61,204 nt of DNA from Clostridiales bacterium (GTDB lineage: Bacteria > Bacillota > Clostridia > Oscillospirales > CAG-272), in the NCBI GenBank assembly GCA_016282315.1, contig JAEEKG010000031.1, positions 1-61,204 on the forward strand, read 5' to 3'. The position numbers were made by a program, and so were the translations under genes. This document shows positions 1,524 through 61,204 of the stretch, piece after piece (position 1 is the first letter of the stretch; each line of letters begins with the position of its first letter). Below the pieces are notes generated by a model. That model did not search any database, was not told where the DNA came from, and worked only from the letters and a program-made list of their open reading frames with translations.

Positions 1524-2900
1524 ATGAGATACGAAAAGATAATTGAATCGGCCGGTGAATATGATGTAGTCGTATGTGGAGGAGGATTTGCAGGATTTGG
1601 TGCTGCATGTGCTGCTGCTCGCGAAGGAGCAAATGTCATTCTCATCGAACGCGACGGATGTCTTGGTGGAACCGGTACAAAAGCGATGGTTAATCATATG
1701 CTTGGAGCTCGCAGATTTGAAGGAAACAGCATTTTTACATGTGTGGGAGGGCTGTTTTCGGAACTTGAAAACCGTCTTCTGGAAATAAACGGAGCCGTAG
1801 ATGTTCATAGCGTCAACAGGGATCTTCCCGCTCAGGGCTGGTATCCTCTTCTCGGAGCAGGTCTCGTTTTTGACAATGAAAAAATGAAGCTTGTTCTTGA
1901 AGAAATGGCTTTGAAATACGGTGTTAAGCTTCTGTATATGACAGAAGTGGTTGATGCCTTGTGTAACGATAGACGAATTACAGATGTTGTGATTCACAAC
2001 AAAAGCGGACTTGCCTCAGTATCCGGAAAATATTTTGTCGATGCCACAGGTGATGGTGACATATGCAGGATGTCAGGATGCTCTTTGATTAAAGGTGAAG
2101 AAGGAGGAGGAATGGCCGCAGCATCTCTTGAGATGCATGTTGACGGAGTAGATGCAGAAAAACTGACTGAATACATGAGCAAAACTCACGATGTTCGTTT
2201 CAGAAATCTGATACGTCCGCTAAAAGAAAAAGGAGTCTGGAATTTCCCGTATGAGATTTTCATTTCGGTTCAGATGACTCGTCCCGATGTTTTTATGATA
2301 AACACGATAAGGCAGGTAGGCATAGACGGAACTGATGCAGATTCCTTAACAAAAGGTATAATCGATGGGAGAAAAGAAAGCTTTGATCTGCTTGAGATTA
2401 TGAGGAAGCATTTTCCGGGATTTGCAAATGCGGAGATTCGCCAGATTGCTCCTACAATAGGTATTCGCGAAACATATCGCTTGTCCGGAGAGTACGTGCT
2501 GACGACAGACGATCTCATAACCGGGAAAGATTTTGAAGACGGGATTGCATTGTCAGCATATCATTGGGACATGCCGGATCCTAAACGTCCAAGTGTTCAA
2601 CCATTAAATGGTGTTGAAACTGCATCTCCTTATACACAGGTGCCTTACAGGTGTTTGCTGCCAAAAGAAGTTGACAATCTTATTGTCACAGGTCGTTGCA
2701 TAAGTGCTGAACGTGAAGTATTGGGACCTGTACGTGTTATGGCTCCATGTCTGGCGATAGGAGAAGCTGCCGGTACATCAGCAGCATTGGTATTTCGAGA
2801 TGGAATTGCATTCAAAAATGCAGATGTGGAAATAATACGCCGAAAGATAAAAGCTCATGGCGGAATAGTTGACAGAATTGATGTAAAAGAAGAAAAGTGA
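1524..2900 (+). CDS. FAD-dependent oxidoreductase (FAD_oxidored family)
   Basis: N-terminal dinucleotide-binding motif DVVVCGGGFAGFGAACAAAREGANVILIER. Confidence 0.8.
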   Translation: MRYEKIIESAGEYDVVVCGGGFAGFGAACAAAREGANVILIERDGCLGGTGTKAMVNHMLGARRFEGNSIFTCVGGLFSELENRLLEINGAVDVHSVNRDLPAQGWYPLLGAGLVFDNEKMKLVLEEMALKYGVKLLYMTEVVDALCNDRRITDVVIHNKSGLASVSGKYFVDATGDGDICRMSGCSLIKGEEGGGMAAASLEMHVDGVDAEKLTEYMSKTHDVRFRNLIRPLKEKGVWNFPYEIFISVQMTRPDVFMINTIRQVGIDGTDADSLTKGIIDGRKESFDLLEIMRKHFPGFANAEIRQIAPTIGIRETYRLSGEYVLTTDDLITGKDFEDGIALSAYHWDMPDPKRPSVQPLNGVETASPYTQVPYRCLLPKEVDNLIVTGRCISAEREVLGPVRVMAPCLAIGEAAGTSAALVFRDGIAFKNADVEIIRRKIKAHGGIVDRIDVKEEK

Positions 2901-2968
2901 TTGGTTCAAACGCTCAAGTCACGGGAGTTCTCGTCAATCATAAAAAACTATGCAAATAAATTCTATTG

Positions 2969-3017
2969 AAAAAGTGGCTGTTGCAACCTTATTCAGGAAG
3001 CAACAACCACTTTTTTT
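2969..3017. terminator. Bidirectional terminator between convergent genes
   Basis: GTGGCTGTTGC / GCAACAACCAC stem with an A-run on the 5' side and a T7 run on the 3' side. Confidence 0.6.
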
Positions 3018-3033
3018 GCGAATGGTTATATAT

Positions 3034-4008
3034 CTATTTATTGGTTTCGTTCTCATTTCTCATTGTCTGGATCAAATCAGATAAATAACCTTCCCTGACA
3101 CCAGCACTACTTATGACAATCTTTTCTGCTCCTATGTATTTAATGATGCACTGCATCGCAGAAGCGCCTGCAATTATTGAGTCTTTTCTGTCAGGACAAG
3201 ATTTTAAAATCAATTTATCGTGATTTTTCCCTGTGCTTAATGCTTTAGCAGCCCCAAGGTATTTTGCGCTTAATATGACTCTTGAATCAGTTGTTTTATC
3301 TTTGTCGTCATCAAGAAACAGAGCAGTCCTAGCTATGGCTCTACCAGTGCCTCCGATTATGTATATTGTATTTGCACTCTTTTTGAACTTGAAATTGTGA
3401 TTAAGAACTGCATTTACATACTTGTTAAGTTTATCCAGTTCTTCCTTTGTTGGATAAAGTGGCACTTTAAAATACTTTTTTGAAAGGGCAAGTGAACCAA
3501 TTGGAAGAGAAACAGAAGGACCATTCTTATTTCCAGTAAAGAGTGATAATTCTGTGCTTCCTCCGCCCATGTCTAATACGCAACTAGATGATACTTGAGA
3601 AGTCTCAAATCTTTCTCGTATTGCTGTTCTGTCAAGATTTGCTTCTCTTATTCCGGAAATGATTTCTATTTTGATTCCCAATTCGTTATATATTCTATCC
3701 AGAATCTCTTTTGAATTAGCAAGCCCTCTCAGGCTTGCGGTTGCAAAAGAAACAAACATGTCAACGGGAATGGAGTTTGAAATCGCCAAGAATTCTCTCA
3801 AAACAGTTAATAGTTTTCCATCGCCGTCTTTTGTAAGACAATTATTCTTTCTGTATCCTGCTAATCCCAGAATGCTTCTTGAGTTGTGAACGATAGTGAA
3901 CTCGCCGGTTTGAATATTTACGTCATATATGTTCATTCTGACACTGTTTGCACCAATATCAGCGACAGCTATTTTTTTATACTCAAATTCTTCGTTAAAA
4001 TTAAACAT
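3034..4008 (-). CDS. Ppx/GppA family phosphatase (exopolyphosphatase-like)
   Basis: IAVADIGANSVRMNIY and DMGGGSTEL ASKHA-fold phosphate-binding motifs. Confidence 0.8.
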   Translation of the reverse strand: MFNFNEEFEYKKIAVADIGANSVRMNIYDVNIQTGEFTIVHNSRSILGLAGYRKNNCLTKDGDGKLLTVLREFLAISNSIPVDMFVSFATASLRGLANSKEILDRIYNELGIKIEIISGIREANLDRTAIRERFETSQVSSSCVLDMGGGSTELSLFTGNKNGPSVSLPIGSLALSKKYFKVPLYPTKEELDKLNKYVNAVLNHNFKFKKSANTIYIIGGTGRAIARTALFLDDDKDKTTDSRVILSAKYLGAAKALSTGKNHDKLILKSCPDRKDSIIAGASAMQCIIKYIGAEKIVISSAGVREGYLSDLIQTMRNENETNK

Positions 4009-45662: not shown

Positions 45663-45804
45663 TTTTACATCCTCCCTGATAAATTAGTTGTAATGAAATT
45701 ATACTATAAATATAAGAAAAATCAAGAGTAAACAAATCGAATTGGTTTGAAGCTGTATTGTAAAGAAGGCGGTTGTGTGGTAAGATTGTTGCGAAAAGAA
45801 GGTG

Positions 45805-46506
45805 ATGAATTTGATTATTTCAGGAGTGCAAAAACTGACCTTACTGGACTATCCAGGCCACACTGCATGTACAGTTTTCTTTTCCGGTTGCAATTTCAGA
45901 TGTCCATTTTGTCACAATGCAATATTAGTTGAAAGGCCTAATGAGACTATAAGAATTCCGGAAGAAGAATTCTTTTCTTTTTTGAACAAGAGAAAAGGGC
46001 TGCTTGATGGTGTTGCCATAACGGGCGGCGAGCCTACGCTCAACAAAGATTTGCCCGAATTCATGTCAAAAATAAAAGAACTCGGTTATGCAGTCAAACT
46101 CGATTCCAATGGTACAAACCCGGAAATGCTCAAAAGAATCATTGATGAAAAACTTGTTGACTACATAGCTATGGATATAAAGAATTCAAAAGAGAAGTAC
46201 CCTATTACATCAGGGGTTGATGAAAGATTCATGCCAAAAGTGGAAGAGTCAGTTGAATTGCTTATGCAAGGAAGAGTCGATTTTGAATTCAGAACCACAA
46301 TAGTAAAAGAATTCCATACAATTGAAGATATGGTGAAAATAAGCGAATGGATCAAGGGGGATGAAAAATACTTCCTTCAGGCATTCAAGGATTCGGGTGA
46401 CCTAATAAACCCTGATTTGCAGGGAATAGAGTACTCTGAATATGAAAAATATCTTCAAGCTGTAAAACCATTGCTTCCCAATTCTGCATTAAGGGGAGTG
46501 TCATAG
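45805..46506 (+). CDS. nrdG: Anaerobic ribonucleoside-triphosphate reductase activating protein (radical SAM)
   Basis: CNFRCPFCHN cluster motif with the preceding LLDYPG; GGEPT. Confidence 0.9.
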   Translation: MNLIISGVQKLTLLDYPGHTACTVFFSGCNFRCPFCHNAILVERPNETIRIPEEEFFSFLNKRKGLLDGVAITGGEPTLNKDLPEFMSKIKELGYAVKLDSNGTNPEMLKRIIDEKLVDYIAMDIKNSKEKYPITSGVDERFMPKVEESVELLMQGRVDFEFRTTIVKEFHTIEDMVKISEWIKGDEKYFLQAFKDSGDLINPDLQGIEYSEYEKYLQAVKPLLPNSALRGVS

Positions 46507-46805: not shown

Positions 46806-49172
46806 ATGTACAGAGTAATCAAGAGAGACGGAAAAGTTACCGAATTTGATCTTGTTAAAATTAACGAAGCGATAAAGAAAGCTTTTGAAGCAACAAAAAC
46901 AAATTATACTGATCAAATCATCGATTTCATCTCTTTGAAAGTAACAGCAGACTTCAACAAAAAGATTAAAAATGATCAGATCTCAGTTGAAGATATCCAG
47001 GACAGCGTTGAAAAGGTTCTTGGAGAAGCAGGATATGGAGATGTAGCAAAAGCTTACATTCTCTACAGAAAGAACAGAGAAAAGATACGTAACATGAATG
47101 CTACCTACCTTGACTACAAAGCATTGGTAGACAGCTATGTTAAAGCGACAGACTGGCGTGTTAAAGAGAACTCAACAGTTACCTACTCAGTAGGCGGTCT
47201 TATTCTTTCTAACTCAGGCGCAATAACAGCAAACTATTGGTTGTCTGAAATATATGACCAGGAAATTGCAGACGCACACAGAAACGGCGATATACACATC
47301 CATGACCTCAGCATGCTCACAGGTTATTGTGCAGGTTGGTCATTAAGACAGCTCATCAAAGAAGGTCTTGGCGGAGTAGCAGGAAAGATTTCAAGCTCAC
47401 CAGCTAGCCACCTTGCAACACTTTGTAACCAGATGGTTAACTTCCTCGGAATCATGCAGAATGAATGGGCTGGTGCTCAGGCATTCTCATCATTCGATAC
47501 ATATCTTGCACCATTTGTTCGCGAAGATAAACTTGATTATCAGCAAGTTAAAAAATGTATTGAATCATTTATATATGGCGTTAATACTCCATCAAGATGG
47601 GGTACACAGGCTCCGTTCTCAAATATTACACTCGACTGGAAAGTTCCGGCTGACCTTGCTGAACAACCATGTATAGTCGGCGGCAAAGAAATGAGCTACA
47701 CATACGCTGATTGTAAAAAAGAAATGGATATGGTTAACAAAGCATTCATCGAAGTCATGATAGAAGGCGATGCAAATGGCAGAGGATTCCAGTACCCAAT
47801 TCCAACATACTCAATCACAAGAGACTTTGATTGGTCTGAAACAGAGAACAACAAACTTCTCTTTGAAATGGCAAGTAAATACGGTACACCATACTTTTCT
47901 AACTATGTAAACTCAGATATGGAGCCAAGCGATGTTCGTAGTATGTGCTGCAGACTGAGACTTGACTTGAGAGAACTCCGTAAGAAATCCGGTGGTTTCT
48001 TTGGAAGCGGCGAATCAACAGGTTCAGTTGGTGTTGTTACAATCAACATGCCAAGAATAGCATACCTGTCCAAAACAGAAGAAGAATTCTATCAGAGACT
48101 TGATAGAATGATGGATATTTCAGCTCGTTCCTTGAAGACAAAACGTACTGTTATAACAAAACTCTTGGATGAAGGTTTGTATCCATACACAAAGAGATAT
48201 CTCGGAACATTTAATAACCACTTCTCAACAATAGGTCTTGTCGGTATGAACGAAGCAGGCCTCAACGCTTGCTGGATCAAGAAAGATATGACTCATCCCG
48301 AGACACAGCAGTTCACAATCAACGTCCTCAATCACATGCGTGAAAGACTCATGGATTACCAGGAAAAATACGGTGATTTGTACAACCTTGAAGCAACTCC
48401 TGCTGAAGCAACATCATACAGACTTGCTAAACATGACAAGGCAAAATATCCGGATATTATCACAGCAAGCATGAGTGAAACACCATACTATACTAACTCA
48501 AGCCATCTTCCGGTTGGATACACAGACGATATATTCACAGCTCTGGATATCCAGGATGAATTGCAGACATTGTACACATCAGGTACTGTATTCCATGCAT
48601 TCCTCGGAGAAAAGCTCCCTGACTGGAAAGCAGCAGCTGATCTTGTAAGAAAGATTTCTGAAAATTACAGACTTCCTTATTACACATTGTCACCAACATA
48701 TTCAATCTGTACTGATCACGGATATCTCGCAGGTGAACAATATACTTGCCCGATATGCGGTAAAAAGACAGAAGTAAACAGCCGTATTACAGGTTACTAT
48801 CGTCCTGTTCAGAACTGGAACGACGGAAAAGCTCAAGAGTTCAAACAGCGTAAAGAATATGTCATTGCTACATCTAAATTGACACACAAAGGTGTCCTCC
48901 AGAATGCAAGTGACTGTCCTCCAGTAACAAAAGAGCAAATCAACGAAGTATCAGATGAACTCAAATTGTTTACTACAAAAACATGCCCGAACTGTAAGAT
49001 AGCTAAACAAATGCTCGAAAAAGCAGGTATTTCTTACACAAATCTCTATGCAGATGAACATAAAGAAGAAGCTATCAATTTGGGAATCAACCAAGCACCA
49101 ACACTTGTTGTAGGCGGCAATAAGTACAAAGGTGTTCCGGAAATCAAGAAATACATAGAATCACTTTCATAA
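46806..49172 (+). CDS. nrdD: Anaerobic (class III) ribonucleoside-triphosphate reductase with an N-terminal ATP-cone and a C-terminal fused thioredoxin-fold (CPNC) domain
   Basis: ATP-cone at the start (MYRVIKRDGKV.EFD), the finger-loop SMCCRL, the Zn ribbon CTDHG...CPICG and the glycyl-radical motif SRITGYYRPV. About 70 extra residues follow: LKLFTTKTCPNCKIAK...APTLVVGG. Confidence 0.93.
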   Translation: MYRVIKRDGKVTEFDLVKINEAIKKAFEATKTNYTDQIIDFISLKVTADFNKKIKNDQISVEDIQDSVEKVLGEAGYGDVAKAYILYRKNREKIRNMNATYLDYKALVDSYVKATDWRVKENSTVTYSVGGLILSNSGAITANYWLSEIYDQEIADAHRNGDIHIHDLSMLTGYCAGWSLRQLIKEGLGGVAGKISSSPASHLATLCNQMVNFLGIMQNEWAGAQAFSSFDTYLAPFVREDKLDYQQVKKCIESFIYGVNTPSRWGTQAPFSNITLDWKVPADLAEQPCIVGGKEMSYTYADCKKEMDMVNKAFIEVMIEGDANGRGFQYPIPTYSITRDFDWSETENNKLLFEMASKYGTPYFSNYVNSDMEPSDVRSMCCRLRLDLRELRKKSGGFFGSGESTGSVGVVTINMPRIAYLSKTEEEFYQRLDRMMDISARSLKTKRTVITKLLDEGLYPYTKRYLGTFNNHFSTIGLVGMNEAGLNACWIKKDMTHPETQQFTINVLNHMRERLMDYQEKYGDLYNLEATPAEATSYRLAKHDKAKYPDIITASMSETPYYTNSSHLPVGYTDDIFTALDIQDELQTLYTSGTVFHAFLGEKLPDWKAAADLVRKISENYRLPYYTLSPTYSICTDHGYLAGEQYTCPICGKKTEVNSRITGYYRPVQNWNDGKAQEFKQRKEYVIATSKLTHKGVLQNASDCPPVTKEQINEVSDELKLFTTKTCPNCKIAKQMLEKAGISYTNLYADEHKEEAINLGINQAPTLVVGGNKYKGVPEIKKYIESLS

Positions 49173-49176
49173 CAAT

Positions 49177-50088
49177 ATGTACGATATTATAGTTATCGGC
49201 TCAGGGCCCGCAGGTTTAACTGCGGCTCTGTATGCCAGAAGAGCAGGAAAAAGCGTTCTCGTAATCGAAAAAGCTTCTTTTGGGGGACAAGTTAATTATT
49301 CTCCGAAAATTGAAAACTATCCGGGATCAAAACAGATAAGCGGTTCTGAATTTGCCGACAAGTTTGTTGATCAGGTTATGGGACACGGAGCTGAATTTGA
49401 TTTCGGAGAAGTTGTCGATGTTGTTGACAATGGTCAGACCAAAACAGTAAAAACTGATTCTTCTGAATATGAATCAAAAACCGTTATCATAGCAGCCGGT
49501 GTAAAGCACAGACATCTGGGTGTTCCGGGAGAAGAAAAATTCTCGGGCGAAGGAGTCTCCTATTGTGCCATCTGTGACGGTGACTTCTTTGCCGGAAGAG
49601 ATGTAGTTGTAGTTGGTGGAGGAAACAGTGCTTTCCAGGATGCAATATTGCTTTCTGAAAAATGTAAATCCGTGACCATGGTACAGGATCTTCCGTACTT
49701 TACCGGAGAAGCATCTTCACTCGAAGTATTAAAGTCAAGAAGCAATGTAAAGTTCATGACTTCATCCGGGGTTTTAGAATTCAAAGGTGAAGACAAACTG
49801 GAGTCAGTTGTAGTCAAACATAAAGATACTGACACAGTCGAAGAATTAAGAACTGACGGAGCTTTTGTTGCTATAGGTCTTGTGCCTGACAACAAAGCGT
49901 TTGCAAAAGTAGCTGAACTTGATGAAAGAGGATACATTTCCTCAGATGAAAAGTGTATGACTAAGACTCCGGGCGTATATGTTGCCGGAGACTGCAGGAC
50001 CAAGAGCATCAGACAGATTACAACTGCAGTTGCAGATGGATCTGTTGCTGCATTGGCAGCGGTCAATTACATTGACAAAAATCGTTAA
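49177..50088 (+). CDS. trxB: Thioredoxin-disulfide reductase
   Basis: GSGPAG FAD motif, redox CAICDG, GGGNSA NADPH motif; starts 4 nt after nrdD. Confidence 0.9.
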   Translation: MYDIIVIGSGPAGLTAALYARRAGKSVLVIEKASFGGQVNYSPKIENYPGSKQISGSEFADKFVDQVMGHGAEFDFGEVVDVVDNGQTKTVKTDSSEYESKTVIIAAGVKHRHLGVPGEEKFSGEGVSYCAICDGDFFAGRDVVVVGGGNSAFQDAILLSEKCKSVTMVQDLPYFTGEASSLEVLKSRSNVKFMTSSGVLEFKGEDKLESVVVKHKDTDTVEELRTDGAFVAIGLVPDNKAFAKVAELDERGYISSDEKCMTKTPGVYVAGDCRTKSIRQITTAVADGSVAALAAVNYIDKNR

Positions 50089-50164: not shown

Positions 50165-51322
50165 TTAATTATTCTTTTGCATGGATGCGCATTCTTCAAT
50201 GTTCTTTTTGAGCATGTCTATAACTGCAGTTATTCTAGGAATATTCATAGTTTTTTTGGACATGCTGTATGTGTTATTAGCAAATATTTCAATCGATTCA
50301 AGTCTATCAAAATTGTATTTCGGCATATTGTTCAGCAAAAACAATCTTTCATAAGAAGTCTTTGCAAAAGGTGTTCCACCCCATTTTGTTTTTGGATTTG
50401 CTATGTCTTTTATAGGCAGGTAATAACCGAGAGAGTTACCGCATCCGAAAAGAGGGGCATGTTTTAAATATTTCAACGTATTTGAATCTCTCAAAAGCCC
50501 AAAGTCAGAATAATTTCTGTCATCATTGTTCATAATTCTGTCTATAGTGAACATCTGACTTAAAAAAGAGAATGTGTCCGTTATTCCGAGTTTCTCACAA
50601 CAATTCACATAGTGTTGTAAATCAGAAACATTTTTTTCTTTATTGAACAACCTCATAATAGCAGATGCGGGAATGAATTCTATATCAGTACTTGTGAAAC
50701 AATCGCATTTGCTGAATGGTAAATCTTTGTCCATGTAAACATCGTAATGAACATAATCGAATTCAAGTCTCTTGCAGATTTCAGAGAAAACTGCGTCGTT
50801 CAAAGGTTGTTGTCTGTATGGAGAATTTCCGGTCTTGATCAATGTTATTTGTCCATTGTTATAATTCCAGTATTTTTTTGTGTAACCGGCTGTTGTGTTC
50901 TCGGGAGATCTCAAGTCAAATCCATAGGCATCAAATTTCATCCCGTAAAGAATACTGGACACATCGTTAGAAAACTCATTTTCAAAGAAGTTGACACTTT
51001 TCCACTTCAAATCCACGTCGCTTTTTCTCATCCAGTAACAATCCTGAAGACTTAATGCCATTCCCTTGAGTTTGAGCTGGGATATGTTTTTAAGGCATAT
51101 GCAACTGAGCAGGTAATCTACCCCTGCTTTATCTTTGGGCATTGAACGTTCATTCCACCAGACTTCAAATGATTTTTTTGTGCAAGTCCCATCAATGTTC
51201 ATAGACCCGGGCGGCATCAATTCTTTTGAGTAAACAGTGATAATCTTTTTTAATCCGGATCTTTTTTCATCAAAATCAAATTCTGCTACGGGATCATCTT
51301 TATGCATTAGTGTGTATTTCAT
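50165..51322 (-). CDS. HipA-like (kinase-fold) domain protein with a non-canonical catalytic motif
   Basis: The layout resembles Firmicute HipA-like proteins (...SLQDCYWMR..., NFFENEFS). The loop that is usually N.DRH..NFG reads NDDRNYSDFG. Confidence 0.45.
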   Translation of the reverse strand: MKYTLMHKDDPVAEFDFDEKRSGLKKIITVYSKELMPPGSMNIDGTCTKKSFEVWWNERSMPKDKAGVDYLLSCICLKNISQLKLKGMALSLQDCYWMRKSDVDLKWKSVNFFENEFSNDVSSILYGMKFDAYGFDLRSPENTTAGYTKKYWNYNNGQITLIKTGNSPYRQQPLNDAVFSEICKRLEFDYVHYDVYMDKDLPFSKCDCFTSTDIEFIPASAIMRLFNKEKNVSDLQHYVNCCEKLGITDTFSFLSQMFTIDRIMNNDDRNYSDFGLLRDSNTLKYLKHAPLFGCGNSLGYYLPIKDIANPKTKWGGTPFAKTSYERLFLLNNMPKYNFDRLESIEIFANNTYSMSKKTMNIPRITAVIDMLKKNIEECASMQKNN

Positions 51323-55700: not shown

Positions 55701-55739
55701 GTGTTTGCAATTGCATTAACTAAGAGGAGAGAGATTCTT

Positions 55740-57170
55740 ATGTTGGATTTGAGTAAAAAAATCAAATGGATTGGTACAGCAGTATGCATGGTTTTATCCG
55801 CTGTTGGCGTAGTTTTTGCTGTAAGATCATTTGGCGCGTCTGATCTTGTCAGTGGAATTGCTTGGTCAGTGATAGCTCTATTTGCTCTTGTATCAATTTA
55901 TGTTGTTTTTGCAGTTGCAAAAATGGCATCTGAGTATTCAGAATACCAAAAGAAATTGCGCATGGTGGTTGAAAAAGCGGCCAGACTTGAAAAAAAGATT
56001 AATAGCATGCAGAGTTCCGGGGTTGATAAGTATTCTCCTGTAAACGGAACAATGACATTTGGACCAACAGAACACTCAGGAGATACTATGGGTGTAACAA
56101 CTGCTATGAGAAAAGCAATTGGTGAAGATTATACTAAGGAAGCACCTCAAAATGGCTCGGTAGTAATAAACGCTCAAACATCCCAGGTAGGTTCAATGAC
56201 CAGCGTATTTTCTACACAAGCAACAAGAGTTAATACTACTTTGAATGACAACGCAAGAAACTCTTTGATAGATGCTTTTAACACTACAAGTACAGACACA
56301 TATCATGTAAATGTTAGAACCAACTCAGCAACGAAATACTTTTCCCGCAAGAACACCACAATTGCTGCAGGTGGTCTTCATACAGTTGCTATATCAAATA
56401 ATGGTAGCGTACAAGCATATGGATTTAATGAGTACGGACAGATAGAAGTATCTGGATGGAGTGATTTAATTCAAATTGCTGCAGGTGCTTATCACACAGT
56501 CGGACTTAAAGAAAATGGAACGGTATTAGCAACTGGTTACAACGGATATGGACAGTGCAATGTCAATGGATGGAGAAACATTTGTTCTATTGCAGCAGGC
56601 TCAGGACACACTGTTGGATTGAAAGCAGATGGAACATGTGTGGCAGTCGGTGATGGCACATACGGACAAACAGATGTAAGTGAATGGACAGATATAATTG
56701 CAATATCAGCTGGAAATAACTACACAGCCGGATTGAAAGCCGATGGCACTGTTGTTGGAGTAGGCGCAAATACTGATGGTAATTGGGGAGCTACAAAGTG
56801 GGGTAGTATAACAGCAATAGCAGCAGGAGGAATACACATTCTTGGTTTGAAAGTTGATGGTACTTGTGCTGCTGTTGGTAATAATTCAAACGGACAGTGT
56901 GAAGTTTCTTCATGGAGAAATGTGATATCAATAGCCGCAGGCAACTATCATTCTGTAGGATTGCTAGCAAGTGGAAAAGTGGTTGCAGCCGGTTATAATG
57001 GCTATAAACAATGTGACGTATCACAATGGAGTGATATAATAGCAATTGCTGCTGGAAGAAATCATACGGTTGGCTTAACAAAATATGGAACACTCGTAGC
57101 CGCAGGCGACAACCAAAAGGGACAATGTTCAGTTCTTGCAAGTCAGAATTTGAGAACAAAAGAACAATAA
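55740..57170 (+). CDS. Membrane-anchored RCC1-like repeat (7-bladed beta-propeller) protein
   Basis: ATG at 55740 follows AGGAGAG. The protein has two TM segments, a coiled-coil, an S/T/N-rich linker and then seven 38-aa repeats of IAAG..HTVGLK.DGTV.A.G.N..GQC.V..W. Confidence 0.8.
   Translation: MLDLSKKIKWIGTAVCMVLSAVGVVFAVRSFGASDLVSGIAWSVIALFALVSIYVVFAVAKMASEYSEYQKKLRMVVEKAARLEKKINSMQSSGVDKYSPVNGTMTFGPTEHSGDTMGVTTAMRKAIGEDYTKEAPQNGSVVINAQTSQVGSMTSVFSTQATRVNTTLNDNARNSLIDAFNTTSTDTYHVNVRTNSATKYFSRKNTTIAAGGLHTVAISNNGSVQAYGFNEYGQIEVSGWSDLIQIAAGAYHTVGLKENGTVLATGYNGYGQCNVNGWRNICSIAAGSGHTVGLKADGTCVAVGDGTYGQTDVSEWTDIIAISAGNNYTAGLKADGTVVGVGANTDGNWGATKWGSITAIAAGGIHILGLKVDGTCAAVGNNSNGQCEVSSWRNVISIAAGNYHSVGLLASGKVVAAGYNGYKQCDVSQWSDIIAIAAGRNHTVGLTKYGTLVAAGDNQKGQCSVLASQNLRTKEQ
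56361..57158 (+). repeat. Seven in-frame 114-nt tandem repeats (RCC1-like blades)
   Basis: Periodicity read from the translated sequence; the DNA copies are diverged. Confidence 0.75.
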
Positions 57171-57243: not shown

Positions 57244-57330
57244 GCCGGTGTGTTGGAATGGCAGACGAGGTGGACTCAAAATCCATTGGGCTCAAAACCC
57301 GTGCGGGTTCAAGTCCCGCCACCGGCACCA
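57244..57330 (+). tRNA. tRNA-Leu (anticodon CAA), long variable arm, CCA encoded
   Basis: The acceptor stem is GCCGGTG/CACCGGC, the anticodon loop is CU-CAA-AA, and the variable stem-loop is GGGCTCAAAACCC. Length 87 nt. Confidence 0.92.
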
Positions 57331-57642: not shown

Positions 57643-58899
57643 ATGTTAATAAAACGAGATGAATATTTAAATAAGCTAATATCAAAAAAATGGAATGGAA
57701 TGATTAAAGTTATTACGGGCATTAGAAGATGCGGTAAATCATATCTATTATTTGAATTGTTCAAAAAACATTTAATCGATAACGGAGTAGAAGATAATCA
57801 AATTATAGAAATTTCACTTGATTCAGTTGAATTTGAAGATTTACAAGACAAAAGAAAACTAAATGACTACATCAAATCAAAAATAAGAAATGATAAAAAT
57901 TATTATATTCTCTTAGATGAGATACAATTGGTTGATGGATTTGAGTTATTGCTTAATGGACTTTTAAAGCATGAAAATATAGATGTTTATGTTACTGGTT
58001 CTAATTCAAAATTTTTGTCAAGTGATATAATTACTGAATTTAGAGGAAGAGGAGATGAGGTTAGAGTTCACCCTCTTTCATTTAAAGAGTTTTATGATTC
58101 ATATAAAGGCGATAAGCATAATGCTTACTCTGAATATTCCATTTATGGTGGAATGCCTGCTTTAGTAGCAATGGATTCACATGAAGCAAAAAGTTCATAT
58201 TTATCTAATCTGGTCGAAAATGTATATTTGACCGATATAATTGATAGAAACGATTTAAAAAAAGATAAGGATGTATTAGGTGAATTATTAGATATTATTT
58301 CATCTGCGATTGGATCACTTACCAATCCAACCAAACTTGTTAATGTTTATGAGTCAGTTAAACATATTAAAATTAACAGGATGACTATATCACATTATTT
58401 AGATTGTTTTATGGACGCATTCCTAATAAGCAAGGTTCAAAGATACGATATAAAAGGTAAGGCGTATATTGATTCTCCATATAAATATTATTTTGAAGAT
58501 ATTGGATTAAGAAACGCCAGAATTAATTATAGACAAAATGAGCCAACTCATACTATGGAAAACATTATTTATAATGAACTTATTATTCGAGGATATTCTG
58601 TTGATGTTGGTATAGTAGAAGTTAATTATAAAGATGAATACAAAAAGAGTCAAAGAAAACAATATGAAGTTGATTTTGTATGTAATAAAGGAAATGCAAA
58701 GTATTATATTCAATCTGCATACGCTTTGGAAAATCAAGATAAAATTAATCAAGAAACTCGTGGCTTAAATAAAATAATGGATTCATTTAAGAAAATAGTG
58801 GTTGTTAAGGATTGTTATGTTCCATGGTACGATGAAAAAGGTGTTTTGTATATTGGACTCGAGGATTTCTTGCTTAATCCTAGTAGTATGGATATTTAA
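57643..58899 (+). CDS. AAA-family ATPase (AAA_14 plus DUF4143 type)
   Basis: Walker A GIRRCGKSYL, Walker B ILLDEIQ, and the characteristic C-terminal DUF4143-like region. The gene is visibly AT-richer than its surroundings. Confidence 0.75.
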   Translation: MLIKRDEYLNKLISKKWNGMIKVITGIRRCGKSYLLFELFKKHLIDNGVEDNQIIEISLDSVEFEDLQDKRKLNDYIKSKIRNDKNYYILLDEIQLVDGFELLLNGLLKHENIDVYVTGSNSKFLSSDIITEFRGRGDEVRVHPLSFKEFYDSYKGDKHNAYSEYSIYGGMPALVAMDSHEAKSSYLSNLVENVYLTDIIDRNDLKKDKDVLGELLDIISSAIGSLTNPTKLVNVYESVKHIKINRMTISHYLDCFMDAFLISKVQRYDIKGKAYIDSPYKYYFEDIGLRNARINYRQNEPTHTMENIIYNELIIRGYSVDVGIVEVNYKDEYKKSQRKQYEVDFVCNKGNAKYYIQSAYALENQDKINQETRGLNKIMDSFKKIVVVKDCYVPWYDEKGVLYIGLEDFLLNPSSMDI

Positions 58900-59143: not shown

Positions 59144-60541
59144 GTGTATTACAGACTAAATAAAGACATCGCCCTAAGAAAATGGAGATATGTCGATCGG
59201 GCAATATATGTAAAGGGAGTGGATCATGCGCTTGGGGTTAGCGAAGAAGAATTCAAAACACTGCTTTTGTGCGATGGAAGTACAAATATAGATAAGAGCA
59301 GTGTCACAGAAGACTTGATTGCAAAAGGATACATTTCCGAGTGCAAAAAGGGTGATAACGTGTACGACTGGTCAAAACTGAAAGTTTATGACAACATGTA
59401 CTTTCCCAGAATGAATCTAATGATTACCGGAAAATGCAACCTTAACTGTTTACACTGTTTCAACGCAAAAGACAATGCTCCATTGAATAGCGAACTGAAA
59501 TATGAAGAGATAGTTAGATTACTGGATGAAGCTAAAAACATAGGTGTTCATGCTTTCACAATAACAGGAGGAGAACCGCTTGTTCACCCGAGATTTTTAG
59601 ACATAATAAAAAGCATATACAAGAGGGATATGTATGTATTCGAACTGAATACAAACGGAGTCCTGATAACCCCAAAGATACTCGAAGAATTCAAAAAAAT
59701 CGGATGCTTTCCTCTCATAAAAATCTCATTTGACGGAATTGGCTACCACAATTGGATGAGGCAGAATCCAAAAGCCGAGGAAAAAACGATTAGTGCTATC
59801 AAGCTCTGTGTTGAAAATGGTTTCAGGGTCAAAGCACAGACACAAGTGAACAAGAAAAATATAAGTGTTATGCTTGACACTGCAAAGTTTTTGAATGAAC
59901 TTGGCGTTGACGAAATGCGTATAATAAGAACAACAGAGGCACCAAGGTGGGAAGAGAATTGTCCGGACTCAACAATCCCGATTGAAGAATACTACGAAAA
60001 AATGTTGGATTTTGCCAAGGAATACAAAGATTCAGGCATGAAAATGACTATAGACATCTGGCAGTTAATGACACTATTTCCCAGAGACAAATCATACTCA
60101 TTGAAAACTATAAAGACAAACAAGAAAGAATTTAATATCAGAATTCCGATGTGCAAGGGAAACAGGGGAATGATTGCAGTAAGCAGCAGCGGAGAAGTTG
60201 TGCCGTGTCTTCAGATGTCAGGATACCTTATGGAAAAGGGGATCAGTCTATCTAATGTAAAGGAAAAGTCTCTTAGAGAAATTATAACCAAAAGTGACTA
60301 CTGCGACATAGCAACTGCTCCAATATTGTCACTAATTTTAAAAAATGACAAGTGCTCGAGTTGCAAATACATAAAGGCTTGCGCAGGAGGATGTCCGGCT
60401 CTCGGTTTGCTGTATTCAAATCCCGCGGGAAACATGTTTCATGAAGATATAACAAAGTGCGTTTTCTTTGAAAACGGATGGTATGACAGGGTACTTAGTG
60501 CCATGGATGACTGGAAAGTCACTAACCCATTGAATATTTAA
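59144..60541 (+). CDS. Radical SAM / SPASM-domain peptide maturase with an N-terminal RRE-like extension
   Basis: CX3CX2C is at C98/C102/C105 (CNLNCLHC), followed by GGEPL. The C-terminal auxiliary-cluster motifs are CKGNRGMIAVSSSGEVVPC and CSSCKYIKACAGGC (CX2CX5CX3C). The start is GTG, and there is no in-frame ATG before residue 85. Confidence 0.85.
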   Translation: MYYRLNKDIALRKWRYVDRAIYVKGVDHALGVSEEEFKTLLLCDGSTNIDKSSVTEDLIAKGYISECKKGDNVYDWSKLKVYDNMYFPRMNLMITGKCNLNCLHCFNAKDNAPLNSELKYEEIVRLLDEAKNIGVHAFTITGGEPLVHPRFLDIIKSIYKRDMYVFELNTNGVLITPKILEEFKKIGCFPLIKISFDGIGYHNWMRQNPKAEEKTISAIKLCVENGFRVKAQTQVNKKNISVMLDTAKFLNELGVDEMRIIRTTEAPRWEENCPDSTIPIEEYYEKMLDFAKEYKDSGMKMTIDIWQLMTLFPRDKSYSLKTIKTNKKEFNIRIPMCKGNRGMIAVSSSGEVVPCLQMSGYLMEKGISLSNVKEKSLREIITKSDYCDIATAPILSLILKNDKCSSCKYIKACAGGCPALGLLYSNPAGNMFHEDITKCVFFENGWYDRVLSAMDDWKVTNPLNI

Positions 60542-60593
60542 TAGATATTTGCTAAAATATAAATGGTTATATGGTTTTTAAGGAGAAATAGTC

Positions 60594-60806
60594 ATGACAA
60601 GAGAAGATCTGCTTAAAGGACTCACCAAAGAGCAAAAAGAAAAACTGGAAAACTGCAAAACCACAGAAGAATTGATTAATGTCGCCAAAAAAGAAGGAAT
60701 TGAACTCACAGATGAACAACTAGAAGCAGTAACCGGCGGATTTTGTGACAGCGAAGAGGATAATACCAAGAAAAAAGACGATGGTAAAAGGATTAAGGAG
60801 AAATGA
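60594..60806 (+). CDS. Nif11-like GG-leader RiPP precursor (70 aa); predicted core FCDSEEDNTKKKDDGKRIKEK
   Basis: AAGGAG lies 8 nt before the ATG. The helical leader ...LTKEQKEKLENCKTTEELINVAKKEGIELTDEQLEAVTGG ends in a double-Gly motif. The gene is 52 nt downstream of the rSAM gene. Confidence 0.7.
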   Translation: MTREDLLKGLTKEQKEKLENCKTTEELINVAKKEGIELTDEQLEAVTGGFCDSEEDNTKKKDDGKRIKEK

Positions 60807-61032: not shown

Positions 61033-61204
61033 ATGCTACTATCCAAAGAGACGACAATAAAAGTTAATTCAACACAATCGAATATCATAAACCACTTGGG
61101 ATATGCAGCAAGTAAACTGTGGAACGTATGTAACTACGAACGTAAGCACTATGATTCAACAGCTGGACAATCATATCCTGATTGGTACAAACAAAAAGCA
61201 TCTC
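61033..61204 (+). mobile_element. tnpB: TnpB-like (IS200/IS605-family OrfB / RNA-guided nuclease) gene, 5' part only; continues beyond the window
   Basis: AAGGAAG SD. The N-terminus ...LGYAASKLWNVCNYERKHY...PDWYKQK resembles the ...A.LWN..NYER... N-termini of IS1341-group TnpB proteins. Only 57 codons are visible. Confidence 0.5.

Follow-up and report, generated by a model that had tools for sequence, protein, structure and literature searches.

A radical SAM/SPASM maturase and its double-glycine leader precursor at a contig edge, probably the 5' part of a RiPP operon of rumen and gut Firmicutes

Results

Genes and motifs at the 3' end of the contig

Examining contig JAEEKG010000031.1 of a Clostridiales bacterium, a stretch of 61,204 nucleotides that was analyzed whole (hereafter the window), we found close to its 3' end a gene for a radical S-adenosylmethionine (rSAM) enzyme with a SPASM region and, 52 nt after it, a small open reading frame (ORF) of 70 amino acids (60594-60806, + strand). 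A sequence-only reading of this DNA had proposed that the two genes are the maturase and the precursor of a peptide synthesized ribosomally and modified post-translationally (RiPP). All that this reading had stated of the sequence itself, i.e. the rSAM triad, the SPASM signature, the 52-nt gap, the Shine-Dalgarno sequence, the 70-residue ORF and a charged 21-residue core with a single Cys, was confirmed. The features of the cassette are as follows.

59144..60541, + strand: radical SAM/SPASM peptide maturase, 465 aa, GTG start, intact, every family-invariant residue kept
59144..59398, + strand: beta/alpha domain of ~85 aa in AlphaFold2 (AF2) models, with invariant C43 and C67; candidate leader-binding domain resembling a RiPP recognition element (RRE)
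59435..59458, + strand: CX3CX2C radical SAM cluster motif, CNLNCLHC (C98/C102/C105)
60152..60460, + strand: SPASM region with seven invariant Cys (C337, C355, C404, C407, C413, C417, C439)
60580..60585, + strand: Shine-Dalgarno sequence AAGGAG, 8 nt before the precursor ATG at 60594, read from the sequence
60594..60740, + strand: leader peptide, aa 1-49, divergent Nif11-like, ending LEAVTGG (double-glycine)
60741..60806, + strand: core FCDSEEDNTKKKDDGKRIKEK and stop codon, with Cys51 in a family-wide G-x-C junction motif

The maturase

The product of the maturase gene matches the Pfam models Radical_SAM (PF04055; E 1.4e-23, 84.3 bits, gathering score 29.5) and SPASM (PF13186; E 1.1e-7, 32.5 bits, gathering score 21.5), and it also exceeds the gathering score of Fer4_12. 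Homologues start with MYYR or MFYR at the position equivalent to its GTG start. The Cys of the SPASM region are spaced C337, G350-x4-C355, C404-x2-C407-x5-C413-x3-C417 and C439, and these seven residues, together with G350 and the rSAM triad C98/C102/C105, are invariant in 79 non-identical homologues (48-87% identity). Since the SPASM region has no more than seven conserved Cys, one ligand of an auxiliary cluster may be supplied from outside it or by the substrate. Outside the rSAM and SPASM ligands, C43, C67, C188 and C222 are near-invariant in the same 79 homologues.

The AF2 model of the full-length enzyme (predicted local distance difference test (pLDDT) 77; predicted template-modeling score 0.80) has SuiB as its closest fold (E 3e-15, template-modeling (TM) scores 0.62/0.65, 488 aligned columns), followed by SkfB, PqqE, the anaerobic sulfatase-maturating enzyme (anSME), CteB and ChlB, with CteB only in mid-rank. 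Among solved structures, SkfB (E 2.5e-9) and SuiB (E 2e-8) come nearest in sequence. The alignment of the full-length model to SuiB runs from end to end and includes the N-terminal region, where a PqqD-like RRE had been proposed. For this part of the proposal the outcome was mixed: Pfam PqqD (PF05402) gave nothing at E<=10 with residues 1-90, while fold comparison gave a weak indication. Searching with the isolated domain (pLDDT 86), TM scores of at least 0.45 were reached by SuiB, LynD and TigE only (0.45-0.52), with E values of 0.7 or higher. The modeled fold is thus no more than suggestive of an RRE. The near-invariant C43 and C67 sit inside this putative leader-binding domain, and Cys there are unusual for RRE domains.

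None of the NCBIfam models came near its cut-off with the maturase, the top scores being 60-109 bits and the cut-offs 340-650. The scores were 109 bits for AhbD (cut-off 500), 104 for NirJ1 (650), 95 for ScmE (400), 88 for StsB (625), 67 for anSME (TIGR03942; 349) and 66.1 for PapB (NF047865; 340); TIGR03974, the maturase model of the SCIFF (six-Cys-in-45) peptides, was absent from the best 25 matches. AhbD and NirJ giving the top scores, we considered that the enzyme serves heme, sulfatase or cofactor maturation outside any RiPP pathway and that the small ORF adjoins it by coincidence. Both scores, however, lie 4- to 6-fold under their cut-offs, and the synteny with precursors and peptide exporters is consistent across at least 80 loci, which effectively refutes this explanation and leaves it next to no probability. 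On both counts the view that the maturase is neither of anSME nor of heme type was borne out.

The precursor and its leader

The precursor reads MTREDLLKGLTKEQKEKLENCKTTEELINVAKKEGIELTDEQLEAVTGG followed by FCDSEEDNTKKKDDGKRIKEK, the leader ending in LTDEQLEAVTGG. Database searches returned 432 relatives with a homologous leader. Aligning 60 of these sequences gave the leader consensus LLKGL.EEQ...K.C....E.L.LAKEEGIELTDEQLEAVSGG, in which 17 columns are invariant; G48 and G49 are invariant in all 60, and the window leader agrees with the double-glycine consensus, its positions -4, -7 and -12 being hydrophobic. The precursor homologue of locus L001 matches TIGR01847 (bacteriocin_sig). The leader had been called Nif11-type, and this holds for the family, 59 of whose 60 members match TIGR03798 at E<=0.01 (best 3.9e-6) and 44 of which match PF07862; the window sequence by itself stays below the curated cut-offs of both (PF07862, 18.1 vs 23.8 bits; TIGR03798, 22.4 vs 32.3 bits). 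Judged by these profile scores, the leader is a divergent relative of the Nif11 class and not a member by curated threshold. The window precursor gave no match to TIGR03973, the SCIFF precursor model. Cys21 of the leader (K-A-C-K; 60654-60656) is invariant in the 60 database homologues, and in several of the operon-adjacent precursors with a short core (L007, L010, L013, L021 and L033) Phe stands at this position.

The small ORF recurs beside homologous maturases, as the sequence-only reading would have it. An identical ORF stands behind an rSAM gene on contig L086, and on contig L098 an rSAM C-terminus identical to that of the window at 150 of 172 positions (87%) is followed by the same 70-residue gene. 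Over the 21 core codons L098 differs from the window by 6 synonymous and 5 conservative non-synonymous changes, with equal length and stop position. We also considered that the small ORF is the frameshift remnant of a long core and rejected this: L098 has kept the core, and short cores of its class recur, which together rule out a random frameshift product. Scanning the flanks of the cassette gave promoter-like sites that are all weak and, on the + strand behind the precursor, no terminator.

The operon in related genomes

The close clade was defined by a maturase identity of at least 63% and comprises 37 loci with at least 1.5 kb of upstream and 5 kb of downstream sequence. In 34 of them the maturase lies beside genes for a membrane protein of ~130 aa, an ATP-binding cassette (ABC) exporter with a C39 peptidase (PCAT), a second ABC protein (ABC2) and a STAS protein. 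The close-clade gene order is short-core precursor, rSAM enzyme, ~130-aa membrane protein, C39-peptidase ABC exporter, second ABC protein and STAS; in nearly every case the gene directly 5' of the maturase encodes a short-core precursor (21 unique ones), often overlapping it or a few nt apart. A leader-bearing precursor is found within 400 nt of the maturase in 18 of the 37 loci and within 10 kb in 25. The ~130-aa accessory protein has a single transmembrane segment and no family match, and the two exporter proteins score just below the cut-offs of the models for export of Nif11 and nitrile hydratase leader peptides (NHLP), with 777 of 853 bits for TIGR03796 and 658 of 709 for TIGR03797, which together make up the export cassette described by Haft, Basu & Mitchell 2010 (PMC2887384). 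Homologous maturases thus adjoin leader-bearing precursors and C39-peptidase exporters, as expected of a RiPP maturase/precursor pair, and we hold the assignment of the window genes to a RiPP cassette with high confidence.

Two loci bear most directly on the window. L028 repeats the window order, rSAM enzyme then short-core precursor, and continues with the accessory gene, PCAT, ABC2, STAS and STAS-kinase genes. L085 is the nearest relative, with a maturase 85% identical and an AAA_14/DUF4143 gene upstream in both; downstream of its maturase come the precursor, AbiEii, the accessory gene, PCAT and ABC. Aligned with L085 at the DNA level, the window matches throughout the leader as far as the GG codons and diverges completely beyond them: the core of L085 at this position is long, of zinc-ribbon type, and frameshifted in the L085 assembly. 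In L085 the AAA_14/DUF4143 gene lies at 1945-3285, a gene for a DUF4379 protein stands between it and the maturase, and AbiEii is inserted between precursor and accessory gene.

The STAS gene, often a fusion of STAS with an APH-like kinase, lies 3' of the second ABC gene in 34 of the 37 close loci (L001-L044; e.g. L002:1927-7856, L001:14161-14460, L028:8182-9665), and some loci carry SpoIIE-HATPase_c_2 and MatE-HATPase_c_2 genes upstream. A partner-switching module is consistently linked to the RiPP operon, a linkage that is not known to have been described.

The contig edge

Downstream of the precursor the window holds a single further feature, which is context and no part of the cassette.

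61033..61204, + strand: 5' end of a TnpB-like ORF (IS200/IS605 accessory), running off the contig

This fragment, already recognized as TnpB-like in the sequence-only reading, is 34.5% identical (E 6e-8) to an annotated IS200/IS605 TnpB and begins 227 nt after the precursor stop. The window is the whole contig, which ends inside this ORF, 398 nt past the precursor. Contigs L086 and L098 likewise end right after the precursor, and this fits a repeat that breaks assemblies. Scanning metagenomes for sequence beyond 61204 gave no extension; among the matches listed there were only leader relatives, none of them with the window core. A two-gene cassette lacking an exporter had been remarked upon as unusual. 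Given that the window is the whole contig and that 34 of the 37 close relatives, L085 included, carry the accessory, PCAT, ABC2 and STAS genes directly downstream, we concluded that the missing exporter is an effect of the contig edge, or at most of an insertion sequence (IS), and no property of the system.

A less favorable explanation of the same edge is that the window cassette is an orphaned remnant, from which an IS/TnpB insertion or a rearrangement has split off the exporter so that nothing mature is secreted. The TnpB-like ORF 227 nt past the stop, with the contig ending there, the position behind two tRNA genes among accessory-type genes, and the failure of tblastn to find PCAT, accessory, ABC2 or STAS homologues in the 59 kb upstream, where only a generic ABC ATPase was found, at 22.6 kb of the window, all agree with it. 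Both ORFs are intact, however, and lack none of the family-invariant residues, comparison with L098 shows the core to be maintained, L085 keeps its exporter despite the AbiEii gene inserted before it, and the breaks of L086 and L098 after the precursor fit an assembly-disrupting repeat better than gene loss. We consider a remnant improbable.

Core peptides and the junction motif

The window core has 21 residues, a single Cys and no net charge, 14 of its residues being charged. Behind the strongly conserved leaders the cores are hypervariable. Among 252 unique cores the first Cys stands at core position 1 or 2 in 220 (87%), and when the cores are aligned on this Cys, Gly at -2 is 96-97% conserved, while no position downstream exceeds ~1.9 bits, positions +1 to +5 showing just an excess of S, T, G, D and E. 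As far as the alignment goes, G-x-C at the leader/core junction is the only family-wide constraint on the core. Eight of the 252 cores have no Cys. Precursors of the distant clade with a Cys-free core are encoded, e.g., at L063:11419-11616 and L060:17757-17990; that of L063, which reads ...VGG-KKLSDEVLEKLIQDLFMPDENK, lies right after the maturase. The distant clade may have another chemistry, or the Cys may be dispensable.

Two classes of core are apparent. Short cores (up to 30 aa; 64 unique) are highly charged, 54 of them have exactly one Cys, and they often terminate in K-[KH]-R-K-[IFY]-[DE]-[SNDK]; the tail of the window core, ...KKKDDGKRIKEK, is a variant of the ...KKKDDGHRKIDS class. The single-Cys charged core, which had been read as an oddity, is therefore the canonical cognate substrate class of the close clade. 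Long cores (188 unique) have a modal Cys count of five, the junction Cys plus CPxC...CxxC, with many zinc-ribbon family matches, and their precursor genes stand in tandem, up to about eight in a row. Such arrays, with 3 to 8 members that have the leader in common but different zinc-ribbon-like cores (5-6 Cys; many Zn-ribbon Pfam matches), are found at L010:485-2106, L088:935-2807, L065:19624-21360, L046:846-4095 and other places, which points to secreted zinc-ribbon mini-proteins as putative RiPP substrates.

It is conceivable that the short peptide, a pheromone or bacteriocin of double-glycine type, stays unmodified and has nothing but the exporter in common with the system, the true rSAM substrates being the multi-Cys zinc-ribbon-like precursors. 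Long Cys-rich cores outnumber short ones (188 vs 64) and offer many Cys, and L085, the nearest relative, has a long core at the same position. Yet in the close clade it is the short single-Cys core that directly adjoins the maturase, often overlapping it (the 21 unique cases above), and the G-x-C junction is common to short and long cores; we regard an unmodified short peptide as very improbable.

The sequence-only reading had further reasoned from PapB-type enzymes, which act on Cys-X3-Asp/Glu, that C2-X3-E6 of the window core is available for such a reaction. The spacing is present in the window, but only ~39% of the short cores have D or E at +4 and the PapB model scores 66 vs 340 bits, so this rationale fails at the family level.

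Distribution of the family

More than 2,300 relatives of the maturase were found in the database, of which the best 120 are all 464-469 aa long and 65-85% identical at 99-100% coverage. A species-level scan with one genome per species gave 377 tblastn-confirmed stretches, of which the best 80 were taken; nearly all of these 80 are full-length, with 48-68% identity, and three are cut by contig ends. As one of the two scan patterns is generic for rSAM enzymes, the true size of the family lies between 80 and 377 species-level matches. The hosts are almost exclusively rumen and gut Firmicutes, i.e. Erysipelotrichaceae/'Bacilli' as metagenome-assembled genomes (MAGs), Lachnospiraceae, Ruminococcus and Oscillospiraceae, and metagenomes hold thousands of the proteins. 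A cultured strain, Ruminococcus sp. YRD2003 (L051), is among the carriers of a zinc-ribbon-type precursor. One contig, L039 (JAFUHJ010000089.1), is binned into a MAG of a Methanomethylophilaceae archaeon; it carries a typical bacterial copy of the operon with precursor, PCAT, ABC2, STAS and a maturase 65% identical to that of the window, and is probably a binning error rather than a case of archaeal carriage.

Other genes of the window

The 59 kb upstream are ordinary anaerobe chromosome up to the tRNA genes, encoding NrdD/NrdG, NAD synthase, 2-keto-3-deoxy-6-phosphogluconate aldolase, a pyridine-nucleotide disulphide oxidoreductase and a PfkB kinase. NrdD (46806-49172, + strand) has an N-terminal ATP-cone and a fused C-terminal glutaredoxin domain; a small rSAM activase (45802-46506) lies upstream of it and the pyridine-nucleotide disulphide oxidoreductase (49177-50088) downstream. 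A 385-aa ORF at 50165-51322 (- strand) has no Pfam match and is 24% identical (E 6e-20) to a 400-aa protein of L001 (6522-7724), which has a faint HipA_C-like signal and is encoded directly upstream of a precursor; it may be a recurrent neighbor of the system, or the resemblance may be a coincidence. Between tRNA-Arg and tRNA-Leu lies the gene for a 489-aa protein (55701-57170, + strand) that has seven RCC1_2 repeats (E 5e-54) and, N-terminally, a hydrophobic segment. It is followed by

57244-57330: tRNA-Leu, between the RCC1_2-repeat gene and the AAA_14/DUF4143 gene

a tRNA that the sequence-only reading had placed correctly, and by the AAA_14/DUF4143 ATPase gene (57643-58899, + strand) upstream of the maturase. 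The neighborhood of the cassette is a hotspot of accessory and defence-type genes.

Discussion

A proposed pathway and its chemistry

We propose that the window genes are probably the visible 5' part of a RiPP operon belonging to an uncharacterized family of rumen and gut Firmicutes. The conserved Nif11-like leader would serve to bind the 70-aa precursor, probably to the N-terminal ~85-aa domain of the maturase, and the rSAM/SPASM enzyme would modify the core at or beside the Cys that stands two residues after the near-invariant junction Gly. The leader would be cut after GG, and the product would be exported by the NHLP/Nif11-type ABC pair, one member of which has a C39 peptidase, together with the ~130-aa membrane protein. 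This export gene set is present in the relatives; for the window genome, whose contig ends in the TnpB-like element 398 nt past the precursor, we only infer it.

That some Cys-centered rSAM modification takes place we consider quite likely. Characterized SPASM enzymes with Cys-bearing RiPP substrates are mostly thioether formers, and SkfB is the best sequence match; for these two reasons we tentatively rank a thioether first. The most likely reaction would be a single intramolecular thioether of sacti- or ranthi-type, linking the junction Cys with a residue close by. Aromatic crosslinks (C-C or C-O) of the streptide, darobactin or triceptide type were considered and rejected, no aromatic residue being conserved in the cores, and spliceotide chemistry was rejected because the cores have no XYG motif.

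Several findings weigh against this proposal. At the level of the operon, 12 of the 37 close loci lack a precursor within 10 kb, the tblastn search of the upstream 59 kb returned none of the missing genes, and in the window genome the TnpB element may split the operon. At the level of the enzyme, the heme-pathway and RiPP-maturase models score similarly low, so that sequence fails to tell the reactions apart; the RRE finds no significant support from the isolated domain, either in Pfam PqqD or in the fold search; and prediction of an rSAM reaction is unreliable unless the identity to a known example is very high (PMC10288494). At the level of the substrate, the core alignment shows no conserved acceptor residue after the junction Cys and leaves the PapB-type CX3[DE] argument unsupported across the family, and one of the 8 Cys-free cores among the 252 adjoins a distant-clade maturase (L063).

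Instead of forming a thioether, the enzyme might perform another Cys-directed reaction, be it an SbtM-like thiooxazole, an anSME-like formylglycine or some other modification of the junction that tags the core N-terminus. Only G-x-C is conserved and what follows is free, from 13-aa charged tails to zinc-ribbon-like domains of ~50-90 aa; anSME is among the good fold matches of the maturase; and a single Cys suffices for SbtM, a SPASM enzyme that converts it to a thiooxazole with the preceding carbonyl and without a second partner residue (PMC11002830). The cores, however, carry no sulfatase-like CxPxR motif, and neither the anSME model (TIGR03942, 67 vs 349 bits) nor the SbtM model reaches its cut-off. 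Thioethers, moreover, are the usual products of SPASM enzymes acting on Cys-bearing RiPP substrates. A non-thioether reaction is on balance unlikely, though of the rivals to the proposed pathway it is the one to be taken most seriously. In a more far-reaching version, which we think rather unlikely, the family would be a RiPP class of its own, whose SPASM enzyme would set a single modification at the fixed G-x-C right behind the Nif11-like leader, an N-terminal 'tagging' whatever the cargo, from charged tails of 13-25 aa to tandem-encoded, folded zinc-ribbon mini-proteins, and the short peptide, conserved beside the maturase, would be a pheromone acting via STAS/SpoIIE/HATPase. Returning to the proposed pathway, it is only speculation that its short charged product, which has a conserved C-terminal ...(H/K)R(K)I(D/E)x motif, would be a signal more than a pore-forming bacteriocin.

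Relation to known systems

The closest parallel is with the Nif11-derived peptide (N11P) and NHLP systems, e.g. the prochlorosins (PMC2887384), which have in common with the present family that the leader is long, conserved, Nif11-like and closed by GG, that the cores are hypervariable, form large paralogous sets and are sometimes encoded in trans, and that export relies on a cassette of two ABC proteins, one with a C39 peptidase. Unlike in those systems, where the maturase is LanM or a cyclodehydratase for thiazole/oxazole-modified microcins, it is here an rSAM enzyme of the SPASM type; the ~130-aa protein with a single transmembrane segment stands where they have the HlyD-like TIGR03794 component, the hosts are Gram-positive rumen bacteria, and leader and exporter score just under the curated cut-offs.

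With SkfB, CteB/SCIFF, PapB and StsB the maturase shares the rSAM core, the seven-Cys SPASM region and an N-terminal extension at the place of the RRE, and as in sactipeptide and ranthipeptide systems a Cys-bearing precursor adjoins the enzyme. It differs from their maturases in scoring far below the models (StsB 88 of 625 bits, PapB 66 of 340), its sequence similarity to SkfB (E 2.5e-9) is weak as well, and the precursors differ in having one donor Cys at a fixed junction, no conserved acceptor and nothing of SCIFF type. SuiB, which has an RRE and forms the Lys-Trp crosslink of streptide, is the best overall structural match and yet only 16% identical; C-C crosslinking of the SuiB type is unlikely because the cores have no conserved Lys/Trp pair. 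Finally, and by analogy only, class II bacteriocin loci with a double-glycine induction peptide resemble the operon in combining a short GG-leader peptide, a C39 exporter and multiple GG-leader effectors. The present loci differ from these in the radical SAM enzyme and in the partner-switching genes (STAS, SpoIIE and HATPase_c_2) that are seen in place of a histidine kinase/response regulator pair.

No NCBIfam equivalog reaches its cut-off, and a literature search within a limited library, leader sequence strings included, found no description of the maturase/precursor family, which thus appears to be undescribed, as had been suspected. The ranthipeptide rule of antiSMASH keys on SCIFF precursors (TIGR03973), as quoted in a 2026 survey of the Hungate1000 genomes (PMC13289728), and since the family has no SCIFF-type precursor this rule would not flag it. 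What appears to be new is the pairing of a SPASM rSAM maturase with Nif11/NHLP-type leader and export; the RiPP logic itself is already known.

Significance

The window holds a genuine but partial copy of the operon, whose missing exporter should not be over-interpreted and whose maturase/precursor pair is intact and suitable for heterologous co-expression. For the specialist, the interest lies in the fixed junction Cys with free cargo, the zinc-ribbon-like apparent substrates and the conserved linkage to STAS. If our inference holds, this is an abundant, apparently uncharacterized rSAM RiPP family of rumen and gut Firmicutes that the curated models tried here have missed, and one in which a single leader-proximal Cys followed by hypervariable cargo differs from the known sactipeptides and ranthipeptides. 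It could then reveal new enzyme chemistry or a leader-guided modification of small proteins, and the linkage to STAS partner-switching genes suggests a signaling role in a community relevant to ruminant digestion.

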